Part shown: positions 746-10,394 of the stretch, piece after piece | How positions within the stretch are numbered: the stretch's first letter is position 1 | How the letters are laid out: every line of letters starts with the position of its first letter | Origin: an uncultured Pseudomonadota bacterium | Lineage (GTDB): Bacteria; Pseudomonadota; Gammaproteobacteria; Methylococcales; Methylomonadaceae | Assembly: GCA_903876445.1 (NCBI GenBank) | Contig: CAIQZX010000011.1 | Span: 1,543 to 65,542, forward strand | DNA: 64,000 bases | Direction: 5' to 3' | Notes under the pieces: generated by a model | Told to the model about the DNA's origin: nothing | Seen by the model: the letters and a program-made list of their open reading frames with translations, nothing else | The model's database searches: none | Translations under genes and position numbers: made by a program

Positions 746-2596
746 ATGAACCAAACCTTTAATTTCCATGAGTTGAAAACATCTAATCGCTTGCCATCCC
801 CGTCCGGCACGGCATTGGAAATCATGAAATTGCTACAACGTGATGATGCCGAAATTAACGAGGTCACAAAATTAGTAAAAATGGATCCTGCATTAACGGG
901 ACGTATTTTACAATTCGCAAATTCAGCGGCATCGGGTGCAAGTCGATCAATTAGTAATGTTAATGATGCCGTTATCATGATGGGGATGCGAGCGGTAAAA
1001 AATTTCGCATTAAGTTTATCCCTCGTTGGTAATGACAGTTATAGTCGCTGTCCTAATTTTAATTATCCGGCGTATTGGTCAAAATCCTTAGCTACCGCTG
1101 TGACAATTGCCCGTTTAAGTGTTCGAGAACGTGTGGTAAGTTCAGAAGAGGCGTTTACACTTGGTTTATTAGCGGATATTGGGCGTTTAGCATTAGCGAC
1201 GGCATGGTCAGAAAGTTATGGTGAATGTATTGTAGAAGCGCAAGGTGATGAGTTATTAAAACTCGAACAAGAGCGTTTTGCGATTAACCACAATACATTA
1301 ACAGTCATGTTATTAGCGGATTGGGGGTTTTTAGATTTATTTTTAGAAGGCGTTAAACTGAGCTTTGATCCTGTTGACGATAATTTGTCGAAAGCCAATC
1401 GATTAGCAAAACAATTGATTTTTTCTAAAAAAATTGCCAATTACTGCATAGCAGACGAAGCCTATCGTCAAACTTTAATGCCGGATTTAGTTATTGAAGC
1501 CTCTCATCATTTATTTGAAGAATGTGAATTACATATATTTCTTGAAGAAATCATCAAACAGTGGCAAGAATGGGGAAAAATGATTAACGTAAAAACGGAT
1601 ATTCGGCAATCTTCACCTGAATTAGGAAAAGGTAAAAGTTCACAATCGGGTTTGAACATATTAGTCGTTGATAACGACACTATGATGCTGGCGCGTTTAT
1701 CCAAACAATTGACAGCCGTTGGTCATAAAATTGCGGCGTGTAAAGATGGTGAATTAGCGTTGAAATACACGTTTGAACATAAGCCAGATTTAATTATTAC
1801 CAATTGGCACATGAAACCAATGAACGGGCTTGAACTTTCAAAAACGTTGCATTCGTCAACGTGGGGAAGTTCGATTTATATCATCATGCTCACATCAACC
1901 GAAGAGGAAAGTGCGTTAATTGAAGCATTTAATGCCGGCATTGACGACTATGTAACCACACCAATCAGTCTAAAAGCATTACTTGCAAGGATTCGTGCTG
2001 GACAGCGGATTATCACCTTACAACAAGAAGTTGCTAAAGAACGTAAAGATTTACAACGTTATATTGCCGAATTAGCGGTTGCAAATCGGCGTTTAGAATT
2101 GATGGCGAATACGGATGTGTTAACCGGCTTATCAAATCGTCGTTATTCCTTAAATCGTTTAGAGCAGGAATGGTCAAGCTCACGGCGTAATAATCGTCCA
2201 ATTAGCGTTCTAATGTTGGATTTAGACCATTTTAAATCCGTCAACGATACTTTTGGTCATGATTCGGGTGATTTAGTGTTAATTCATGCTGCTAAAATTA
2301 TGAAAAAATGTGCGCGAACTAATGACATTCCATGTCGTTTGGGAGGCGAGGAATTTTTAGTTATTTTGCCTAACACAGATGGCAAAGAAGCCCTGATATT
2401 AGCAGAGCGATTACGCAAAATGATTGAAGTAAATCAAGTTGAAAATGTACCATTATTAACGCCTATGACAGTCAGTATTGGTGTTGCGTGTTCTGTCGAT
2501 GGAAAAGTAGGCTGGAAAGAATTGATTACACTCGCTGACGAGGCTTTGTATTCGGTTAAACGAAATAAACGAAACGCCGTGCAGTTAGCAAAATAG
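746..2596 (+). CDS. HDOD domain - degenerate receiver - GGDEF diguanylate cyclase
   Basis: The N-terminus has an HDOD-like signature (LPSPSGTALEIMKLL...MDPALTGRILQFANSA). The central region is CheY-like (ILVVDND...LIITNWHMKPMNGLE...IIMLTS...DYVTTP). The C-terminus carries an RTND I-site five residues before GGEEF (2315-2356), close to the PleD pattern RxxDxxCRxGGEEF. Confidence 0.85.
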   Translation: MNQTFNFHELKTSNRLPSPSGTALEIMKLLQRDDAEINEVTKLVKMDPALTGRILQFANSAASGASRSISNVNDAVIMMGMRAVKNFALSLSLVGNDSYSRCPNFNYPAYWSKSLATAVTIARLSVRERVVSSEEAFTLGLLADIGRLALATAWSESYGECIVEAQGDELLKLEQERFAINHNTLTVMLLADWGFLDLFLEGVKLSFDPVDDNLSKANRLAKQLIFSKKIANYCIADEAYRQTLMPDLVIEASHHLFEECELHIFLEEIIKQWQEWGKMINVKTDIRQSSPELGKGKSSQSGLNILVVDNDTMMLARLSKQLTAVGHKIAACKDGELALKYTFEHKPDLIITNWHMKPMNGLELSKTLHSSTWGSSIYIIMLTSTEEESALIEAFNAGIDDYVTTPISLKALLARIRAGQRIITLQQEVAKERKDLQRYIAELAVANRRLELMANTDVLTGLSNRRYSLNRLEQEWSSSRRNNRPISVLMLDLDHFKSVNDTFGHDSGDLVLIHAAKIMKKCARTNDIPCRLGGEEFLVILPNTDGKEALILAERLRKMIEVNQVENVPLLTPMTVSIGVACSVDGKVGWKELITLADEALYSVKRNKRNAVQLAK

Positions 2597-2688
2597 ACTT
2601 ATCAAATTATTACAAAACCGTGCGAATCCATTTTTATCTCGCGCAAAAAATTAAACTTAAAATTTTTATTAAAACGTAGGAAAAAATT

Positions 2689-4476
2689 ATGCGAACCCAC
2701 AAATGTGGCGAAATTAACACCCAACAACTTGACCAAACTGTAACTATTTGCGGCTGGGTTCATCGTCGTCGTGATCACGGCGGTGTGATTTTTATTGATT
2801 TACGCGACCGCGCTGGTTTAGTGCAAGTTGTTTTCGATCCTGATTTAGCAGAACAATTTGCGATTGCTGAACACGTTCGTAGTGAATATGTATTACAAAT
2901 CAGTGGTGTTGTTCGTTATCGCCCAGAAGGTACGATAAATAAAAATATGCGTTCGGGCGAAATCGAGATTTTGGCGAAAGCAATTGTTGTATTAAATGAA
3001 TCAGAAACACCACCATTCCCAATTGAAAGCGATATTGAGGTAAACGAAGAATTACGTTTACGTTATCGTTATTTGGATTTGCGTAAAGCATCAATGCAAG
3101 AAAAAATGCGGGTTCGTCGTGATGTGACGCGGGTGATGCGTAATTATTTAGATGACAACGAATTTTTTGAAATCGAAACGCCTTATTTAACAAAAGCAAC
3201 ACCCGAAGGCGCACGCGATTATATTGTGCCAAGTCGTACACACGAAAATTCTTTTTTCGCCTTGCCACAATCGCCGCAACTTTATAAACAAATGTTGATG
3301 ATTGCCGGTTTTGATCGTTATTACCAAGTTGTGCGTTGTTTCCGTGACGAAGATTTACGCGCCGACCGCCAGCCTGAATTCACGCAGCTTGATATTGAAA
3401 CGTCATTCATGACGGAAGAACAAATTATCAACGTGACAGAAGAAATGATTCGTCAGTTATTTGCGAAAGTGATTAACGTTGAATTGGATGCTGAATTTCC
3501 ACGCATGACGTATGCAGAAGCAATTTCACGATTTGGTATTGACCGCCCTGATTTGCGAATTCCATTGGAATTAGTGGATATTGCGGAATTCATGAAAGAC
3601 GTAGAATTCAAAGTTTTCTCTGCACCGGCTAACGATCCAAAAGGTCGCATCGCGGCAATGCGTGTACCGAATGGTGGCAACATCATGACGCGCAAAGAAA
3701 TCGACGATTTAACGAAATTTGTCGGTAACTATGGCGCGAAAGGTTTAGCCTATATCAAAGTTAACGATTTAGCAGCCGGCATTGATGGTTTGCAATCGCC
3801 TATCGTGAAATTCGCACCAGCAGATGTTTGGGCAAAAGTATTAGAAAAAACAGGCGCGAAAGACGGCGATTTAATTTTCTTCGGCGCAGATAAAGCAAAT
3901 GTTGTAAATGAATCGATGGCAGCATTGCGTGTGAAACTCGGTCACGATTTAAATTTAGTCGAAGGTGATTGGAAACCGGTTTGGGTTGTTGATTTTCCGA
4001 TGTTTGAATGGGACGACAAAAACGGACGTTTCACGGCTATTCATCATCCATTCACCGCGCCAAGTTGTTCCGCTGAAGAATTAAAAGCTAATCCAGCAAC
4101 CGCTTTATCGCGTGCTTACGATTTAGTTTTGAACGGTACGGAAGTGGGTGGCGGTTCAATTCGTATCAATCGCCCAGATATGCAACAAACTGTATTCGAA
4201 ATTTTGGGTATTAGCGAAGAAGAAGCGCGTGAAAAATTTGGATTCTTACTTGATGCGTTAAAATTTGGTGCGCCACCACATGGTGGATTGGCATTTGGTT
4301 TAGACCGTCTAGTTATGTTAATGACAAATTCAAGTTCAATTCGTGACGTAATTGCTTTCCCAAAAACACAATCAGCAGCGTGTCCGTTGGTGAGTGCGCC
4401 GGCGGTTGTGACAGATGAACAGTTGAAAGAGTTAGGCATTCGCTTAATTAAACCCGCCGCAAAAGAAAAAGTTTAA
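2689..4476 (+). CDS. aspS: Aspartyl-tRNA synthetase
   Basis: 595 aa. The N-terminus MRTHKCGEI...[27 protein letters not shown] and the class II motifs ([32 protein letters not shown]) are typical of bacterial AspRS. Confidence 0.97.
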
Positions 4477-4489
4477 GGCTTTTTTTAGG

Positions 4490-4516
4490 CAGGCGGTTTG
4501 AAAATAACCGCCTGCA
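4490..4516 (+). terminator. Perfect 10-bp stem-loop just after the aspS stop
   Basis: gcaggcggtt-tgaaaat-aaccgcctgc lies 14 nt after the aspS stop. The trailing T-run is weak, so it may be a terminator or an RNA-stability hairpin. Confidence 0.5.
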
Positions 4517-4587
4517 ATCCGTTAAGTTTTCAACATCAAATCCTATTTACAAATCCAATAACACCTAGAAATTCATACAGTGAAACG

Positions 4588-6099
4588 ATGGCAGATAATT
4601 CTTCAGCATCCAAAGCTCAACAAATAGGAAAATTTATAGTTCAAGATGGTATCGCAATAGATACTGAAACAGGTTTGATGTGGCTGAGATTTGCTTATGG
4701 GCAAAGCTGGGAGAATGGAAAACCAATTGGTAATGCTCAATTAACTGATTGGAATACAGCTAAGAACATTAAGTTCATTTACGATGGGTATAATGATTGG
4801 AGAATTCCAACTATTGAAAACTTGTTAATGCTGAACGAAAACAGGTCTATTTTTCCAAAATGTCCACAATTTTTATGGACTTCTTCTGTGGACACTTATC
4901 TTAACAATTGGACTAATGAAATTAGTCGCAAAAGCTCATTAAGCCATATTCAATTGGTAAGAAATTTAACCCAAAACCAACAAGTTGAATTAAATAAACA
5001 AATAAGACGAGAAACAGAACGTACAGTAGAAAAAAATGGAATTTCCCATATTGAGGATATGTCCAAAGAGCATTTGGATAAAGTATTTTTAGCAATCGAA
5101 AATATAAGCAAAAGGCATCGCGAAGAAAAAACACAGCAAGTAAAAAACCATCAAGTAAAAGAACCTGAACGCAAAATCAAAGTCGAACAGCAAGCGAAAT
5201 TAGAAGCTAAACAAAAAGCAGAAAAAGAAAAACTCGAAATCGAACAAAAAATTGAAGCTGAACGCCAAGAAAAATTAGAGGCTGAACGAAAAACCAGAGC
5301 TGAATACTTGGCTAAAAAGAGAGCAGAATTTGAAATTGAACGCCGTCCAGACCAAAAAAGAAAATTAGAATTTCAACGAAAAGAAAAATTAAAAGAACAA
5401 GAAAAATTAGAAGTTGAACGTAAAAAAGAATCAGAAAAAAGAGCCAAGTTAGATGTTTTACAAAAGGCAGAAACGGAACGACAAGTGAAATTAGCTCTTG
5501 AACGTAAACGCCAAGCAAAGTCGTCGGTTGAGCGTAAAGCAGAGCAAGAACATCAAATAGAGACTGAACGAAAAACTAGAGCTGAATACTACTCGGCTAG
5601 ATTAGTGACTGAGCAAAAGGCAGAGAAAGAGCGTAAAGAAAAAACAGAAGCATTGCAAAAAATAGATGATGCCAAACAAGCACGAATAAAAGCAGAAGAA
5701 CAAACCGAAATAGAGCGTAAAGCGAAAATAGAAGCACAGCGAAAAGCCGAAATAGTCCGCCAAGAAAAATTAGACGCTGAATGCAAAATTGAAAGTGAAA
5801 AATTAAAAAATGAACAATTAAAGACAACTCATTTACAACAGCTTGAATCAGAAAAAGAACGACTAAAACGAGAATTTGAATCAGAAATTGAACGATTAAA
5901 AATTGAATCGGAACGACAAATAAAATTAGAAATTGAACGATTCAAAGCTGAAATGGAAGTAAAAATAAAATTGCAAGCTAACGAATCGATAGAAATTGAA
6001 CCGATTTTAGAAGTGGTGAAAGTTGAAATGAAACAAACAACCATTGCAGTTCCATTATTAAAAGATGAAGCCACCCAAGATTTTGAGGATATGTTTTGA
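4588..6099 (+). CDS. Cytoplasmic DUF1566 (Lcl C-terminal-like, lectin-fold) domain protein with a long E/K/R-rich helical region
   Basis: The ORF track starts at TTG 4498, but those 30 codons overlap the aspS hairpin, so I use ATG 4588 (MADNSSASK). There is no hydrophobic signal peptide. The DUF1566-like pattern is TGLMWLRF...W..A......GYNDWRIPTIENLL...LWTSS...HIQLVR. The rest is E/K/R-rich helix with an acidic tail. Confidence 0.6.
   Translation: MADNSSASKAQQIGKFIVQDGIAIDTETGLMWLRFAYGQSWENGKPIGNAQLTDWNTAKNIKFIYDGYNDWRIPTIENLLMLNENRSIFPKCPQFLWTSSVDTYLNNWTNEISRKSSLSHIQLVRNLTQNQQVELNKQIRRETERTVEKNGISHIEDMSKEHLDKVFLAIENISKRHREEKTQQVKNHQVKEPERKIKVEQQAKLEAKQKAEKEKLEIEQKIEAERQEKLEAERKTRAEYLAKKRAEFEIERRPDQKRKLEFQRKEKLKEQEKLEVERKKESEKRAKLDVLQKAETERQVKLALERKRQAKSSVERKAEQEHQIETERKTRAEYYSARLVTEQKAEKERKEKTEALQKIDDAKQARIKAEEQTEIERKAKIEAQRKAEIVRQEKLDAECKIESEKLKNEQLKTTHLQQLESEKERLKREFESEIERLKIESERQIKLEIERFKAEMEVKIKLQANESIEIEPILEVVKVEMKQTTIAVPLLKDEATQDFEDMF
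5116..5985 (+). repeat. In-frame E/K/R-rich low-complexity coding region with internal duplications
   Basis: ERK/AEK-type heptad-like peptides recur throughout. A 27-nt segment at 5282-5308 recurs at 5564-5590 with one mismatch (ctgaacgaaaaac[c/t]agagctgaatact, peptide ERKTRAEY). Confidence 0.8.
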
Positions 6100-7493
6100 A
6101 CCGTGAAGAATTAGACAAAAAAATCAGCGAAGCATTTAGCGATTTAGTGATTGATAAAGCCTTAGTGCGAAGTTTGAAAATTCGGGATAAACGCACGATT
6201 CCGAGTTTTGTTGAGGAGTGGTTAATTTCACGTTTTCAAAAATCGGACAAATCGAATGCGGACATTTATCAAGATGTCACGGCGTTTATGAGCAAACATT
6301 TACCCGCTAAAACTGAAAAAGAACGTATTAAACATGAATTGCAATCGGGCAATGCGTTAACGATTTTAGATAGATTTAACGTTCGCATTGATATTGCGAA
6401 AGATAAAAAAATGCTCACTGTTCCGTGTATTGAAGAAACTAATGCGCGAGTTTCAAACGAAGTTATCGAACAAAATCCGATTCTGTTAGAAGGCGGTCAA
6501 TGGGGCGCGGGGCGTTTGATGGTTCGCGCTGAAGGTAGAATTAACGTGATTGAAATGGTGGATTTTAAACCGATGCAATCGGGAAAAGTCGATTTACAGG
6601 CGTTAATCAAAGCGCGAGAGTATTTTTCAACCCGTGAATGGATTGCGTTATTGCTTCGCACGATGGGTTATGAACCGTCCGCCTACACCAAAGCACAACA
6701 AGATAATTTGATTTTGCGTTTGTTGCCGTTAGTGCAGAATAATTTGAACATGATGGAACTTGCGCCAAAAGGCACGGGGAAATCGTTTATTTTTTCAAAT
6801 TTAAGTCGTTATGTTTGGGTGAATAGCGGTGGCGCGTTGACGCAAGCACAGTTGTTTAAAAATTTGAACACGAAAGAAATCGGTTTAATGGGGCGTTATG
6901 ATTTATTGGTTTTGGACGAAGGGCAATCGATTAGCTTTAAAGGCGCGGACGATATTCATGCAAAATTCAAAGATTATTTAGAATCGGGACATTATTCGAT
7001 TGGCAATGACAAAATCACCAGTGAATGCGGGTTGATGATTTTAGCGAACATTGATTTGTATCACGACGGCAGCCCAAGAAGACGCGATTACATTCGCCAT
7101 TTGCCATCAATGTTTCACGATAGCGCGTTGATGGATAGATTCCACGGCATTATTGCAGGATGGGAAATTCCAAGATTTACAACCGACAGCGCGGCGCAAG
7201 GTTTGGGAATTAAAGCCGATGTGTTTGGTGAATATCTGCATCAATTACGACTTGTCAGTCACCACGAATTTCCATTTGGCGAATGTCCGCAATTAAAAGG
7301 TGACACGCGAGATGTGAAAGCGGTCACACGTTTAGCGTCGGCATTATCAAAACTATTGCTATTAAACCCAGACCACGATGATTACGAAGATTATGTTTTG
7401 AATCCTGCCAAAGCTCTGCGGCAACGTGTTAGAACACAATTAGCCGAATTAGATGCACACGAATTTTCGGGAAAATTGGATGTTTCGATTTGA
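6096..7493 (+). CDS. BrxL-like / TIGR02688-like AAA+ ATPase without a Lon-protease domain
   Basis: The TTG start overlaps the upstream stop (TTTTGA, 4-nt overlap). The N-terminus (LDKKISEAFSDLVIDKALVRSL...IPSFVEEWLISRF) resembles the BrxL N-domain as I recall it. Walker A is ELAPKGTGKS (6762-6785) and Walker B is DLLVLDEG (6900-6923). SALMDRFHGIIAGWEIPRF resembles the BrxL DRxH...GWExP block. At 465 aa it has no protease-like C-terminus. Confidence 0.65.
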   Translation: MNREELDKKISEAFSDLVIDKALVRSLKIRDKRTIPSFVEEWLISRFQKSDKSNADIYQDVTAFMSKHLPAKTEKERIKHELQSGNALTILDRFNVRIDIAKDKKMLTVPCIEETNARVSNEVIEQNPILLEGGQWGAGRLMVRAEGRINVIEMVDFKPMQSGKVDLQALIKAREYFSTREWIALLLRTMGYEPSAYTKAQQDNLILRLLPLVQNNLNMMELAPKGTGKSFIFSNLSRYVWVNSGGALTQAQLFKNLNTKEIGLMGRYDLLVLDEGQSISFKGADDIHAKFKDYLESGHYSIGNDKITSECGLMILANIDLYHDGSPRRRDYIRHLPSMFHDSALMDRFHGIIAGWEIPRFTTDSAAQGLGIKADVFGEYLHQLRLVSHHEFPFGECPQLKGDTRDVKAVTRLASALSKLLLLNPDHDDYEDYVLNPAKALRQRVRTQLAELDAHEFSGKLDVSI

Positions 7494-7515: not shown

Positions 7516-7533
7516 AGCGGCAAATAATTGCCG
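7516..7533. terminator. Bidirectional hairpin between convergent genes
   Basis: gcggcaa-ataa-ttgccgc lies between the stop of the ATPase gene (7493) and the stop of the minus-strand RND gene (7544), with A/T runs on both sides. Confidence 0.5.
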
Positions 7534-7543
7534 CATTGAATTT

Positions 7544-10147
7544 TCAAATTCGCTTTCCGCTCCAAGCCGGAAGTACAATCAAAGAACAAATCACCGTGAA
7601 AAATAAACCAATCGACAACAACAATCCCATGCTCGCCATGCCTTGATGATGTGTAAAGGACAAACTCGAGAAACTACACAACGTGGTGATTGAACTAAAA
7701 ATAATGCCGCGCGTTGTGCTGCTATGCAAAAGATTTTCATCTTCGTTTTTATTAAAATGCAACCGGTGCATAATCAGAATACTGCTATCAATCCCCATTC
7801 CAAGTAATAATGGTAGAGCTATCACGTTCGCAAAATTGAAGGGATTATTCAGCAATACATTTGTTGCGCCAGTTAATAATGCTGCCAACATTAACGGCGC
7901 AATAATAATCGCCATGTGTGAAAAACGACGATAAATCGCCCAAAGCAATAACGTAATGGCAGTAAATGCACCACCAAACGCTTGTAAAAAGGCTTTCACC
8001 ACTGCGCCCCCCCCCATTTCATTGGCAATCGGCAAACCCGAAACCGCATTGTCTACACTTTGAATTTGAGCGACAAATTCTTTCATATTCTCTTCAACGT
8101 TTTGATCTTTCGCAGGCGTGATTAAAACTTTATACAAGCCGTTTTCACTAACCCAATGCACACGAAGTTCATCGGGAATCGCATTCAAATCAAATGCTGT
8201 CGCACTTAAACTGGTTCGCAAACGTTCTAGTGTATAAGGTAATAATCCCAACACATTTTTTTCTAATTGTTTATAAATCGGCGATTCATCGTTGTGTGCG
8301 TGCAAAAAAACTTCAATATGACTTTGTAACTTTTCAAGCGTTTCGATAGGAGCGTTAGGCGTTTTGTCAGCAATCGCTTGTTTTAATTGTTCATTAAATT
8401 TAACCAGCGCAGCGCGTTGTTCATGATTTTCGGATAATGAAACATGAAAATTCTCAAGTTGATTACCTAACATTAAATTCAAATCATCGATAATCGCTAA
8501 TTTTTCATCCTGATTTTCAGCGACAAAACTGCTTAATGTAATGGTTTCGTGAACAGCAGAAAGTGTTTTCATTTTTGCGGCTAACGCATTCGCATCGTCC
8601 AAATTATTCGCTAAACCTGTTACGGCAAACGGCGAATCGTTTTTCGATTTTAATAAATCTTTAATTGTCGAAACCGATTCACTTTGTGGATCACGCAAGT
8701 TAATGGGATTCGCATCGAACGTTAAATTGGTTAATACGCCACACGCGCCAATTGCTAACAAAATTGAACAGATACGAATCGATTTCGCGTAATGAAACGG
8801 AAACGTGACAATAAATTGTGGCGCGAAAGCTGATTTAATGGGTTTGGGATTATTAACCGGCAAAATACAAAGTAATGCGGGTAAAACAGTGAGGGAAATT
8901 ATCAATCCAATAAAAATACCGCCACCGGAAATAATGCCTAATTCCGAAACCCCCGCATAATCGGTGGGAATAAAAGCTAAAAACCCTAATGCTGTCGTCA
9001 AAGCACATAAAAATAATGATGAACCAACACCGCTCATGCTGTGATGAATCGCATCCAGATTGGAATAACCCCGCGCTTTTCGTTCACGATAATATAAGCA
9101 AATATGCACCGCATAATCGACACCTAAACCAATGTATAAACTCGCAAAGGCAATAGAAATTACGTTTAAATGTCCAACCGAAATTGCGGCAAAACCCGCC
9201 GTTAAAATCAACCCCATAATTAACACGATGTAAGTAATCACTAGCAATCGCAAAGAATGAAAACCAATCCATTGCACAGCGAAAACTAAAATTAACGACG
9301 CTACGCCGGCAAATGTCGCTCCATTACTAACACTTTCGAGTTCTTCATGTTCTAACGCACTTTCACCCGTAATTCGAATTCGAACATTCGGATTTTCATT
9401 CATGATTTGATTAGCCGCTTCATGGGCAGCGTCTTGCGCGGCATCGACAGGCAACATCTCATCAAAATGCACGACCGGTTTTGCCACAATTAAAACGCGC
9501 TTTGCATCATCATTAAGTTTGTTATTCGCTAATAATGTTTGCCATGAAAGCGATTCGGATTTGTTATCCCGTTGTGCGTTAATCGTATTATCGACAGCAA
9601 GCAATAATGGATTTAAATCCATCGGTAACGTATTTTGTTTTTCATTTAACGCTTGTTGAATAATGTCAAACAAACCATCAAGCGAATAATTTTGCGCTAA
9701 ATGCCCAATAAACGGTTGTGCGTCGGTGAGTTGTGTCGCAACTATTTCTAAATCAGCAGTATCTAAATACAACAATGCTTGCTGACGAAAAAAATGATTG
9801 TCGTTTGGAATATAAACGGATGCAAAACGGTCAGGTTTTGCACGAAGTGAATCAACCAGTTTTGCTGCACTTTGCGTCGCTTCTTCAGGCGTATTCGCAT
9901 CGACAACAAATAACGTCGTATAAGCATCTTGCGGAAATGCTTCATCGATTCGACGTTGATTTTGCTGAAAAGGCAAATCTGGTGACAACATTTCAGCGGT
10001 GTTGGTATTAACAGTTAAATGGTTATAAACATAATAACTCGTGCCAGCGCAAAGAAATAATGCCGCTAAAACAACAAACCACGGGAAATGAACAATTTGC
10101 TTTTCGCACCAATGCGAAAGATGAGACAAAAAACGGTTGTGTTTCAT
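7544..10147 (-). CDS. hpnN: RND/MMPL-superfamily exporter, HpnN-like (putative hopanoid transporter)
   Basis: About 867 aa with two blocks of about six TM helices, each preceded by a large soluble loop, which is the MMPL/HpnN topology. A hopanoid gene cluster is in the same window. ATG 10147 (MKHNRF) is preferred over the TTG at 10162. Confidence 0.65.
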   Translation of the reverse strand: MKHNRFLSHLSHWCEKQIVHFPWFVVLAALFLCAGTSYYVYNHLTVNTNTAEMLSPDLPFQQNQRRIDEAFPQDAYTTLFVVDANTPEEATQSAAKLVDSLRAKPDRFASVYIPNDNHFFRQQALLYLDTADLEIVATQLTDAQPFIGHLAQNYSLDGLFDIIQQALNEKQNTLPMDLNPLLLAVDNTINAQRDNKSESLSWQTLLANNKLNDDAKRVLIVAKPVVHFDEMLPVDAAQDAAHEAANQIMNENPNVRIRITGESALEHEELESVSNGATFAGVASLILVFAVQWIGFHSLRLLVITYIVLIMGLILTAGFAAISVGHLNVISIAFASLYIGLGVDYAVHICLYYRERKARGYSNLDAIHHSMSGVGSSLFLCALTTALGFLAFIPTDYAGVSELGIISGGGIFIGLIISLTVLPALLCILPVNNPKPIKSAFAPQFIVTFPFHYAKSIRICSILLAIGACGVLTNLTFDANPINLRDPQSESVSTIKDLLKSKNDSPFAVTGLANNLDDANALAAKMKTLSAVHETITLSSFVAENQDEKLAIIDDLNLMLGNQLENFHVSLSENHEQRAALVKFNEQLKQAIADKTPNAPIETLEKLQSHIEVFLHAHNDESPIYKQLEKNVLGLLPYTLERLRTSLSATAFDLNAIPDELRVHWVSENGLYKVLITPAKDQNVEENMKEFVAQIQSVDNAVSGLPIANEMGGGAVVKAFLQAFGGAFTAITLLLWAIYRRFSHMAIIIAPLMLAALLTGATNVLLNNPFNFANVIALPLLLGMGIDSSILIMHRLHFNKNEDENLLHSSTTRGIIFSSITTLCSFSSLSFTHHQGMASMGLLLSIGLFFTVICSLIVLPAWSGKRI

Positions 10148-10394
10148 GAATAATAAAATCAAGTTTAAACCGTAAATTATAATTGTGAATCATTGATAAG
10201 AATAGTTACGAATGTTGATAAGAAAAAGTGAACGATTATTTTTGCGTTTGTTATTTTCGTTTTCGCATCCTCCTCGAAGTTTTTATGATGAAAATCTGCA
10301 ACTATTTTGTGAAAATTTGTTACCTTCAATTTTACACGGTAATAAAAAGTCGTATAGAATTGAAATGTTTTAGTCAAAATTGAGAAAAAGTGCT

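Follow-up and report, generated by a model that had tools for sequence, protein, structure and literature searches.

The window, a stretch of 64,000 nucleotides (nt) of contig CAIQZX010000011.1 from an uncultured bacterium of the Methylomonadaceae that was analyzed here at its full length, was found to contain a cassette of two genes. The first gene (gene 1) encodes an adaptor-like protein with a short acidic tail and the second gene (gene 2) encodes a short-form BrxL, known from the bacteriophage exclusion (BREX) systems. By sequence comparison, the acidic tail of gene 1 is the last 16 residues of PglZ. In our reading, which we hold with about even confidence, the cassette derives from a type-4-like BREX system, is minimal and mobile, and forms an adaptor-plus-motor defence module, in which the tail would dock BrxL.

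Identification of a PglZ-type tail in gene 1

The PglZs of related BREX loci end in ...LLEKD..TQ.FEDMF, and gene 1 ends in VPLLKDEATQDFEDMF. The assignment of the tail is based on this common ending of the PglZs of the group and on the 4-nt overlap with brxL, which is the same in the closest relatives. All genes other than pglZ that are located directly upstream of related brxL genes end in an identical or closely similar tail, and for each of these loci with a readable junction an overlap of 4 nt with brxL was found. The tail was identical or nearly identical across partner proteins with unrelated bodies. On the DNA level, the similarity between the loci of this group (referred to as the escaped clade) starts approximately 48 nt upstream of brxL and is gone further upstream. 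The preliminary description of this DNA mentions a short acidic tail; this tail is present, corresponds to the C-terminal tail conserved in PglZ and is the key feature of the protein.

Among 75 distinct tails from AT-rich genomes, 55 encode the glutamate of the FEDMF motif by GAG and 4 encode it by GAA. This excess of GAG fits a Shine-Dalgarno constraint, as the sequence GAGGA is embedded in the tail codons. The motif is kept across the 75 distinct DNA versions, with and without the overlap to brxL, and in the PglZ tail of the Chromatiaceae (...FDNFFDL) an acidic-aromatic peptide is kept without Shine-Dalgarno-like DNA. Judged from these sequences, constraints on the peptide and on the ribosome binding site both seem to act on the tail.

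For the comparison with more distant systems, the ends of eight PglZ proteins were analyzed (L141 of E. coli p1658/97 and L142 to L146, compared to L147 and L148 of BREX-5; here and below, single loci are given by their L number). The type-1 PglZs encoded beside a long BrxL end in ...AFQDDFF (E. coli), ...AFTDDFF (Acinetobacter), ...ISDFDF (Bacillus), ...DEFDFFS (Ligilactobacillus) and ...TNDFGDF (Planktothrix), and none of these type-1 tails is encoded by Shine-Dalgarno-like DNA. The PglZ of an Abditibacteriota locus with a short BrxL ends in ...KDDDFDF. In the two BREX-5 PglZs, where a helicase replaces BrxL, the motif is absent (...FVTITQE and ...FISITQG). In this small sample, the pattern corresponds to that expected for a BrxL-docking peptide, and the acidic-aromatic end of PglZ may be a general motif for the recruitment of BrxL. 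Neither such a tail nor a direct contact between PglZ and BrxL is described in the BREX literature searched. BrxL was found to co-purify only weakly with the BrxB-BrxC-PglX-PglZ core (PMC11974810).

BREX origin of the BrxL

The scan for the BrxL alignment yielded 80 loci (one genome per species) and 49 metagenome loci. The gene directly upstream of the related brxL genes encodes a PglZ of about 750 to 790 amino acids (aa) in the large majority, at 60-odd loci. The BrxL of the window is 82-84% identical to the BrxLs of type-4-like BREX systems of related methanotrophs (84% with L008 and L013), and the overall identity to PglZ-linked BrxLs of Methylococcales, Chromatiaceae, Vibrio and other genomes ranges between 60 and 84%. 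The loci L061 (Methylotuvimicrobium buryatense 5G) and L013 (a metagenome-assembled genome, MAG) encode DUF4007, a BrxC-sized protein of about 1200 aa, PglZ and a short BrxL. This is consistent with the published layout of type-4 BREX, in which BrxL has no C-terminal extension (PMC12839542). In the sister group (L008, L010, L012 and L013), pglZ overlaps brxL by 4 nt.

In a neighbour-joining tree, the BrxLs with a partner other than PglZ form one clade inside the PglZ-linked BrxLs of the Methylococcales (bootstrap 80/100). Since they are monophyletic and nested among the PglZ-linked ones, a single escape is concluded: as the comparative data show, brxL left a BREX operon once, together with the last 16 codons of pglZ. 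The BrxL of the window had been regarded as an orphan, which was not confirmed in the sense of an ancient orphan, given its identity to, and its position among, the type-4-like BREX BrxLs. A phage origin was rejected, as the scan of viral contigs for BrxL found nothing.

The type-4-like BREX loci of the methanotrophs lie among other defence-type genes (L061, 3274-4097; L013, 35-2147 and 11407-13575; L024, 11436-14771). DUF4007 and the BrxC-like gene are separated by an inserted PemK-like toxin, L013 has GmrSD-like proteins and a protein kinase on its flanks, and a SIR2-STAND protein is encoded downstream in L024. Two brxL copies approximately 23 kb apart (L053 and L055) are located on NZ_BLYC01000028.1 of the Bathymodiolus japonicus symbiont; the PglZ upstream of one copy was called at 436 aa only, an indication that the BREX region is duplicated or in part degraded. 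In the MAG JBAXMT01 (isolate ELA460), one brxL is linked to ZorE-Lcl_C (L006), one to PglZ (L010) and one to an unknown partner (L014), for which a binning error is possible.

Domain composition of the short BrxL

Gene 2 was assigned to NCBIfam TIGR02688 with 401.7 bits (cutoff 329.3), covering model positions 1-448 of 449. In Pfam, the domains BrxL_N (PF20442, E 8e-27) and BrxL_ATPase (PF13337, E 3e-95) were found, and the PADLOC (version 2023) model for BrxL gave 391.6 bits. The homology to the solved BrxL of Acinetobacter (8EMC) has an E value of 2e-57 and spans residues 2-457. The cutoff of the long-form model TIGR02653 was not reached (245.9 compared to 628.25 bits) and the match stops at model position 459 of 675. 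Gene 2 thus comprises the BrxL N-domain and the MCM-like AAA+ domain, and no Lon-like or HKD C-terminal domain was identified. The family assignment made before, with N-domain and AAA+ core, is therefore supported by scores above the cutoff, and gene 2 is a genuine BrxL and not a housekeeping ATPase. The Walker A and Walker B motifs are intact at the positions reported before, and the DRFH..GWEIP block is present; both Walker motifs are invariant across the BrxL alignment. The TTG start codon is backed by relatives, in which proteins initiated at ATG begin with MN(K/R)EELD.

Exchange of partner genes and Zorya-linked relatives

The partner proteins in the escaped clade differ strongly. Those with a single or double Lcl_C domain and E/K/R repeats have lengths of 307, 318, 503, 566, 877, 943 and 1219 aa. 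Other partners carry Lcl_C and DnaJ_C (L009), twelve Sel1 repeats (L007), an N-domain with S1 RNA-binding repeats (L092) or such an N-domain with Lcl_C (L056). A protein with several transmembrane segments and a coiled coil was found in L094, and beta-rich partners in L011 and L095. The DnaJ_C domain of L009 (8673-10004; 161 bits) and the two S1 domains of L092 (8616-10004; 154 bits) are located between the N-terminal module and the tail and could be accidental captures or decoy-like sensor domains.

ZorE, the HNH nuclease of Zorya II, was also identified as partner, either in full length (L136 and L137), as N-terminal part (L030/L096 and L097) or with an inserted Lcl_C (L091 and L006). Since genes for ZorA2 and ZorB2 with PADLOC scores above 300 bits precede ZorE at these loci, they represent zorA-zorB-zorE(tail)-brxL operons. 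The MotAB-like ZorA and ZorB and the nuclease ZorE, which define Zorya II, are present together at L030/L096, L097, L091, L136 and L137 and not in the window. In L096, the operon consists of ZorA (284-2542), ZorB (2545-3237), ZorE with the tail (3239-4021) and BrxL (4018-5427). In these Zorya II + BrxL operons, the tail is carried by ZorE or by its N-terminal part, and the overlap with brxL is 4 nt.

In the crown of the escaped clade, BrxLs that are 92-97% identical are combined with quite different partner architectures. At one chromosomal site, where the BrxL is identical, the partner has a length of 943 aa in two samples (L087/L088/L090, 7173-10004) and of 1219 aa in a third (L089, 6345-10004). 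This length polymorphism of the spacer is due to the in-frame duplication of an E/K/R block of 276 residues. The DNA similarity that starts about 48 nt upstream of brxL and does not extend beyond its stop codon marks the tail together with brxL as the stable unit, and in the sequences compared the turnover of this unit is much slower than that of the 5′ part of the partner gene.

For all genes with Lcl_C and tail and with readable downstream DNA (10 out of 10 loci), the next gene is brxL with an overlap of 4 nt. The co-localization of the two genes is far beyond chance. The pairing of DUF1566 with BrxL that had been proposed for the window was therefore recovered as a neighbourhood, but DUF1566 is one of many heads. 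As the heads are interchangeable on the same tail, the conserved pairing is that of the tail with BrxL and not that of DUF1566 with BrxL.

Genomic contexts, selection and decay

The Lcl_C-BrxL pair was found in at least four unrelated contexts. It is located between aspS and an MMPL gene in the window, between rpoD and mutS in L003, between argH and the toxin-antitoxin genes PemK and ParDE in L087, and in a mobile or defence island in L001, which comprises PIN, DUF3800, AbiC, an AAA_15/21 ATPase, a large helicase and a resolvase. The locus with the Sel1-type partner is flanked by an AbiP-like protein and a helicase as defence candidates, and another locus of the clade adjoins a type I restriction enzyme. 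The co-localization in other genomes, on which the preliminary description had made its proposal depend, was thus observed in several unrelated contexts, and relatives near defence genes were found in the L001 island, the Sel1-type locus and the Zorya II operons.

Within the escaped clade, the ratio of non-synonymous to synonymous substitutions (dN/dS) of brxL is 0.04-0.10 at dS values of 0.4-0.9, and brxL is under strong purifying selection. For gene 1, the comparison with its relatives gave a dN/dS of 0.17-0.37 for the C-terminal 75 codons and of 0.18-0.44 for the head, and the gene is intact at every locus. The non-synonymous evolution of gene 1 is about 10 times faster than that of brxL.

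Upstream of the start MADNS, a short remnant of an older N-terminal ORF (open reading frame; MLNDLPREKL...) was identified in L001, L003 and L139; this ORF is intact in L056 and L092. The remnants suggest that the window type of gene 1 is a 5′-truncated derivative, which persisted and spread. In L054 (8549-10903), a 5′-truncated brxL (310 aa) with no partner gene lies 36 nt behind argH, at a site of the same type as that of L087. This locus is a decayed copy and demonstrates that decay does occur.

Head and helical spacer of gene 1

The homologues of gene 1 at other loci share its N-terminal start MADNS.... A longer ORF starting from TTG 4498 (533 aa) was rejected, because it crosses a hairpin and the homologues begin at MADNS. 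The Lcl_C domain (PF07603) was detected at residues 22-108 with an E value of 7e-9 and 36.4 bits compared to a cutoff of 34.9, so that the N-terminal DUF1566/Lcl_C domain described before is present by a marginal pass. It is the weakest of the family (36 compared to 62-67 bits per domain in the relatives). Its second half is shortened compared to other family members, and the AlphaFold2 confidence (predicted local distance difference test, pLDDT) is 53-55 at residues 91-120. For the AlphaFold2 model of the head (pLDDT 73), the top 50 Foldseek matches in the PDB were all C-type lectin-like, the fold ascribed to the head before, but with weak scores (best E 0.018, template modelling score 0.41-0.46). 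Neither NCBIfam nor PADLOC gave a match to gene 1, and no match to sequences of solved structures was found at E <= 1; BrxL is accordingly the only protein of the pair recognized by PADLOC.

A word-indexed search resulted in 13 matches for the whole gene 1 and 8 for the head, with low complexity and the index limiting the sensitivity. By exhaustive search of the representative set, 2320 relatives of the head were identified at E <= 0.001. These are mostly large multi-domain proteins without the tail, and an ...FEDMF end was found in 13 out of 163 inspected. Among the close relatives of the head that lack the tail, P0013 (842 aa) is a fusion of the head to a caspase-like peptidase C14 domain, and in P0011 and P0012 the head is located behind the N-terminal domain MLDNHPRHQL... 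of some BrxL partners. These architectures suggest that the combination of head and N-domain is older than its capture by the tail.

No hydrophobic segment that could serve as signal peptide, lipobox or transmembrane anchor was detected in gene 1 (maximum of 1.03 in a Kyte-Doolittle window of 19 aa), and the N-terminus MADNSSASKAQQ is polar. Since a hydrophobic stretch is missing, gene 1 has no signal peptide or transmembrane helix and is, as judged from its sequence, cytoplasmic. The absence of a signal peptide had been noted before, and a cryptic export signal was not found.

The long E/K/R helix reported previously was identified as well, with a length of about 330 residues. Residues 181-470 (290 residues) are 52% charged and contain no glycine and 2 prolines. 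Pairs of opposite charge are more frequent at i+4 (65) than at i+3 (44), and no heptad periodicity was found (Fourier power of about 0.2 at periods 3.5 and 7). AlphaFold2 predicts helices for residues 129-149, 156-280 and 296-465 with a pLDDT of 85-90 over residues 300-460, followed by a disordered tail (466-503). The spacer thus resembles an ER/K single alpha-helix more than a heptad coiled coil, both in composition and in the model. If helical throughout, it would have a length of approximately 40-50 nm.

Kinship of the helix with the tail of ZorA is unsupported, since PADLOC gives no match for gene 1. DUF1566 proteins are known as targets of diversity-generating retroelements. This was rejected for gene 1, because no template repeat was found in the window: blastn (word size 7) resulted in chance matches of 12-21 nt only. 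A reverse transcriptase is absent among the Pfam matches listed for the window.

Locus layout and boundaries

Both ORFs of the pair are located on one strand, with aspS (2689-4476) on one side and an MMPL/RND gene in convergent orientation (7544-10162) on the other. The coordinates of the features are given in Table 1. The leader upstream of gene 1 is weakly similar to the DNA upstream of gene 1 in L003, L001 and L139, with moderate similarity only for the window, and no convincing sigma-70 promoter was found. The stop codon TGA of gene 1 (6097-6099) overlaps the TTG start of gene 2, which agrees with the overlap described before. Based on this overlap and the Shine-Dalgarno sequence within the tail codons, the two genes are translationally coupled.

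The two hairpins of the preliminary description fared differently. The one directly after aspS (4490-4516) is real, perfect, 10 bp long and GC-rich. Since a T-run precedes and does not follow it, it is no canonical intrinsic terminator on either strand; it was not flagged by the terminator scan and was rejected as terminator of aspS. The shared hairpin before the RND gene is terminator-like on both strands. It probably belongs to the host flank rather than to the cassette, because the relatives have no conserved sequence past the brxL stop codon. This end of conservation is also in line with the autonomous two-gene unit assumed previously.

Table 1. Features of the two-gene cassette in the window.
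Feature	Position	Strand	Basis
Leader of the cassette, probable left boundary (approximate)	4517..4587	+	DNA alignment
Gene 1, adaptor-like cytoplasmic protein, 503 aa, ATG start, TGA stop	4588..6099	+	ORF and homologues
DUF1566/Lcl_C domain, residues ~12-126	4621..4965	+	Pfam PF07603, AlphaFold2/Foldseek
E/K/R-rich helical spacer, residues ~129-465	4972..5982	+	Composition, charge pairs, AlphaFold2
C-terminal tail VPLLKDEATQDFEDMF, PglZ-tail homologue, proposed BrxL-docking peptide	6049..6096	+	Comparison of partners and PglZ
Candidate BrxL-docking peptide from the gene 1 tail, EVVKVEMKQTTIAVPLLKDEATQDFEDMF			
Coupling signals: Shine-Dalgarno GAGGA 6085-6089 (in E-D codons) and TTG 6096-6098	6085..6098	+	Sequence
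Gene 2, short-form BrxL, 465 aa, TTG start	6096..7493	+	TIGR02688, Pfam, PADLOC
Walker A, APKGTGKS (K229)	6762..6785	+	Sequence; invariant across BrxL alignment
Walker B, DLLVLDEG (D274, E275)	6900..6923	+	Sequence; invariant across BrxL alignment
DRFH and GWEIP block	7134-7172	+	Sequence
Bidirectional terminator-like hairpin, brxL to MMPL/RND interval	7517..7534	.	Terminator scan, both strands

The remainder of the 64 kb encodes housekeeping functions such as RapA, QueC, hopanoid synthesis, RuvB and tRNA synthetases. The 42 large ORFs of the window were scanned with PADLOC (36 families) and Pfam (85 families) and the best 25 of each were examined; among the matches listed, only housekeeping families were found. 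The helicase-type PADLOC matches concern a single ORF each, most likely the ORF with the Pfam match RapA_C.

By tblastn against the 64 kb, three PglZs gave nothing below E 0.7, two BrxC-like proteins (BrxC/PglY) gave a best E of 0.053 over 44 residues, and DUF4007 was negative. PglZ was also not found in the PADLOC and Pfam scans, BrxC was not found by PADLOC, and PglX and DUF4007 were not among the PADLOC and Pfam matches listed. With nothing below E 0.05 for DUF4007, BrxC and PglZ, the absence of BREX genes from the 64 kb reported before was reproduced. For ZorA, ZorB and ZorE from the sister loci, no window match was obtained by tblastn at E <= 1e-5.

Proposed mechanism and alternative explanations

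By the comparative data, the unit of tail and brxL has been joined to many different upstream coding segments since its single escape. In the window, the partner consists of a lectin-like DUF1566 head, an ER/K spacer of variable length and the PglZ-type tail. In the proposed mechanism, the ring of BrxL would be docked by the disordered acidic-aromatic tail, a role that this tail would also have on PglZ in BREX, the head may bind a phage-derived or infection-associated ligand, and the ER/K helix could serve as a length-tunable spacer. The BrxL of Acinetobacter is an MCM-like DNA-dependent ATPase that is needed for restriction (PMC10164562). By homology, the BrxL of the window would then assemble on double-stranded DNA through an ATP-dependent process and block the replication of the invader, as proposed for the BrxL of BREX (PMC10164562). 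In this scheme, gene 1 would be the adaptor or sensor, and gene 2 would be the motor or effector.

Several observations weigh against this mechanism. The window cassette has no nuclease or obvious killing domain, unlike its PglZ- and ZorE-linked relatives, and among the Lcl_C domains of the family its own is eroded the most (36 bits, shortened second half, low pLDDT). Gene 1 appears from the upstream sequences to be a 5′-truncated derivative of longer ancestors. In the solved structure, two rings are joined by a C-terminal domain, which is missing from the short BrxL. The family is narrow, and all members found are from Methylococcales-like freshwater and sediment samples. For the tail, the ribosome binding site probably explains part of the conservation, which weakens the peptide argument for the closest relatives, and the negative control for the tail rule consists of two BREX-5 PglZs only.

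The pair could also be a decaying remnant of a BREX system or of a Zorya-II/BrxL hybrid that has lost its defence function, with gene 1 as an accidental fusion without a role. Consistent with this, no effector nuclease, BrxC, PglZ or ZorAB is found in the window, the Lcl_C of the window is eroded, the older N-terminal ORF remains upstream in L001, L003 and L139, the truncated brxL beside argH in L054 proves decay at such sites, and the partner genes are patchwork-like with housekeeping-type pieces (DnaJ_C, S1). However, a dN/dS of 0.04-0.10 for brxL at dS values of up to 0.9 is difficult to reconcile with decay, and gene 1 is open at every locus despite its long repeats, with the 4-nt overlap always kept and a dN/dS below 0.45. 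Moreover, the truncated MADNS form is common to loci with a brxL dS of 0.6-0.7 and has therefore persisted and moved between contexts, which makes the remnant rather unlikely. We consider it just as improbable that the pair acts in trans and supplies an extra BrxL or an alternative adaptor to a complete BREX or Zorya system at another site of the genome. Such a role would be in line with the three brxL loci of different kinds in one MAG (JBAXMT01; L010, L006 and L014), with the visible part of the genome being 64 kb and with the finding that the type-1 BREX BrxL restricts phage only together with other components (PMC10164562). The pair, however, moves alone into housekeeping neighbourhoods, and owing to the shared tail the adaptor and PglZ would be competitors for BrxL instead of cooperating.

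A role outside immunity has to be considered as well, in which BrxL would be a Lon-family-like AAA+ remodeller of proteins or nucleic acids and the partners its substrate adaptors. The heads of the partners are classic protein- or RNA-binding modules, the neighbourhood in the window is entirely of housekeeping type, and the tail is similar to the peptides that serve for docking or as degrons at the C-terminus of AAA+ adaptors, such as those of SspB/ClpX. This role is nevertheless very doubtful, as the clade is nested in BREX and includes Zorya II operons and members in defence islands, and its patchy, strain-variable distribution with rapid partner turnover is typical of conflict systems and not of housekeeping. 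In addition, DNA is bound inside the pore of the solved BrxL, and a protease active site is missing from it (PMC10164562).

A wider interpretation, which we put forward tentatively and hold to be somewhat improbable, is that the acidic-aromatic tail of PglZ is a portable peptide for BrxL recruitment. The tail with brxL would then be a plug-in effector for BREX (through PglZ), for the membrane motor of Zorya II (through ZorE) and for free-standing sensor heads of the lectin-like, Sel1, S1 and DnaJ_C types. The S1 and DnaJ_C heads would possibly be decoys of host factors targeted by phages, and the window pair would be the simplest system of this kind.

Comparison with known systems and implications

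The BrxL of the window belongs to the short group with N-domain and AAA+ domain as in type-4 BREX, which comprises PAPS reductase/DUF4007, BrxC, PglZ and a short BrxL, and the gene upstream of the window BrxL carries the PglZ tail. In contrast to type-4 BREX, the PglZ body, BrxC, DUF4007 and a modification gene are absent from the window, and 16 PglZ residues are attached to an unrelated protein. The similarity to the type-1 BREX BrxL (8EMC/8EMH) comprises the homology over residues 2-457 and the N-domain and MCM-like core with the Walker motifs, and the sampled type-1 PglZs also have acidic-aromatic ends (...DDFF, ...DFDF). Type-1 BrxL, however, has a Lon-like C-terminal domain of about 200 residues, by which two rings are stacked tail to tail (PMC10164562); the window BrxL lacks this domain. 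Because PglZ, BrxC and a modification gene were not found in the window, the cassette is not a BREX system.

Zorya II is related through the zorA-zorB-zorE-brxL operons of the same clade, in which ZorE has the same tail and, in L091 and L006, an inserted Lcl_C. The long helical cytoplasmic extension of ZorA (PMC11890865) is comparable to gene 1. As the window contains no ZorA, ZorB or ZorE, the cassette is not Zorya either; gene 1 has no HNH motif, and published Zorya II systems have no BrxL. Gene 1 passes PF07603 like other DUF1566/Lcl_C proteins, and the model of its head resembles C-type lectin-like domains with weak scores. It differs by its location, which is cytoplasmic as judged from the sequence, and by the shortened domain, and from most of these proteins by the tail.

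SspB docks ClpX via a short C-terminal peptide and is an example of an AAA+ adaptor. The layout of the cassette is similar to adaptors of this type, with a binding domain, a long linker, a disordered C-terminal peptide and a ring ATPase. There is no sequence relationship, and BrxL, as far as known, binds DNA rather than threading proteins. By analogy and not by homology, the cassette would work most like such an AAA+ adaptor pair.

In the literature searched, no paper links BrxL with DUF1566 or ZorE with BrxL, and a 2026 survey of BREX diversity (PMC12839542) does not mention DUF1566, a lectin, an orphan BrxL or a C-terminal tail. Together with the missing PADLOC match for gene 1, this agrees with the earlier statement that no system with such a pairing has been described. 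The cassette is an undescribed arrangement of known parts, namely BrxL, the PglZ tail and DUF1566. The wider family including the Zorya-II/BrxL hybrids appears to be undescribed as well. Compared to the literature searched and to PADLOC, the BrxL-extended Zorya II operons and the stand-alone BrxL pairs with swappable heads are new.

According to papers up to mid-2026, it is not yet resolved what BrxL does in BREX (PMC13326643; PMC11974810), and a mechanism for its recruitment is not described in the BREX literature searched. In this family, the 16 C-terminal residues of PglZ are the smallest unit retained with BrxL while all other parts are exchanged, and the escaped clade allows a direct test of the coupling of BrxL to BREX. 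If the proposed role of the tail is true, the family would be a natural domain-swap experiment on the coupling of BrxL to the rest of BREX. If functional, the stand-alone pairs and the BrxL-extended Zorya II operons would add a compact two-gene defence module and would be an example of how parts of two defence systems are recombined through a short peptide handle.

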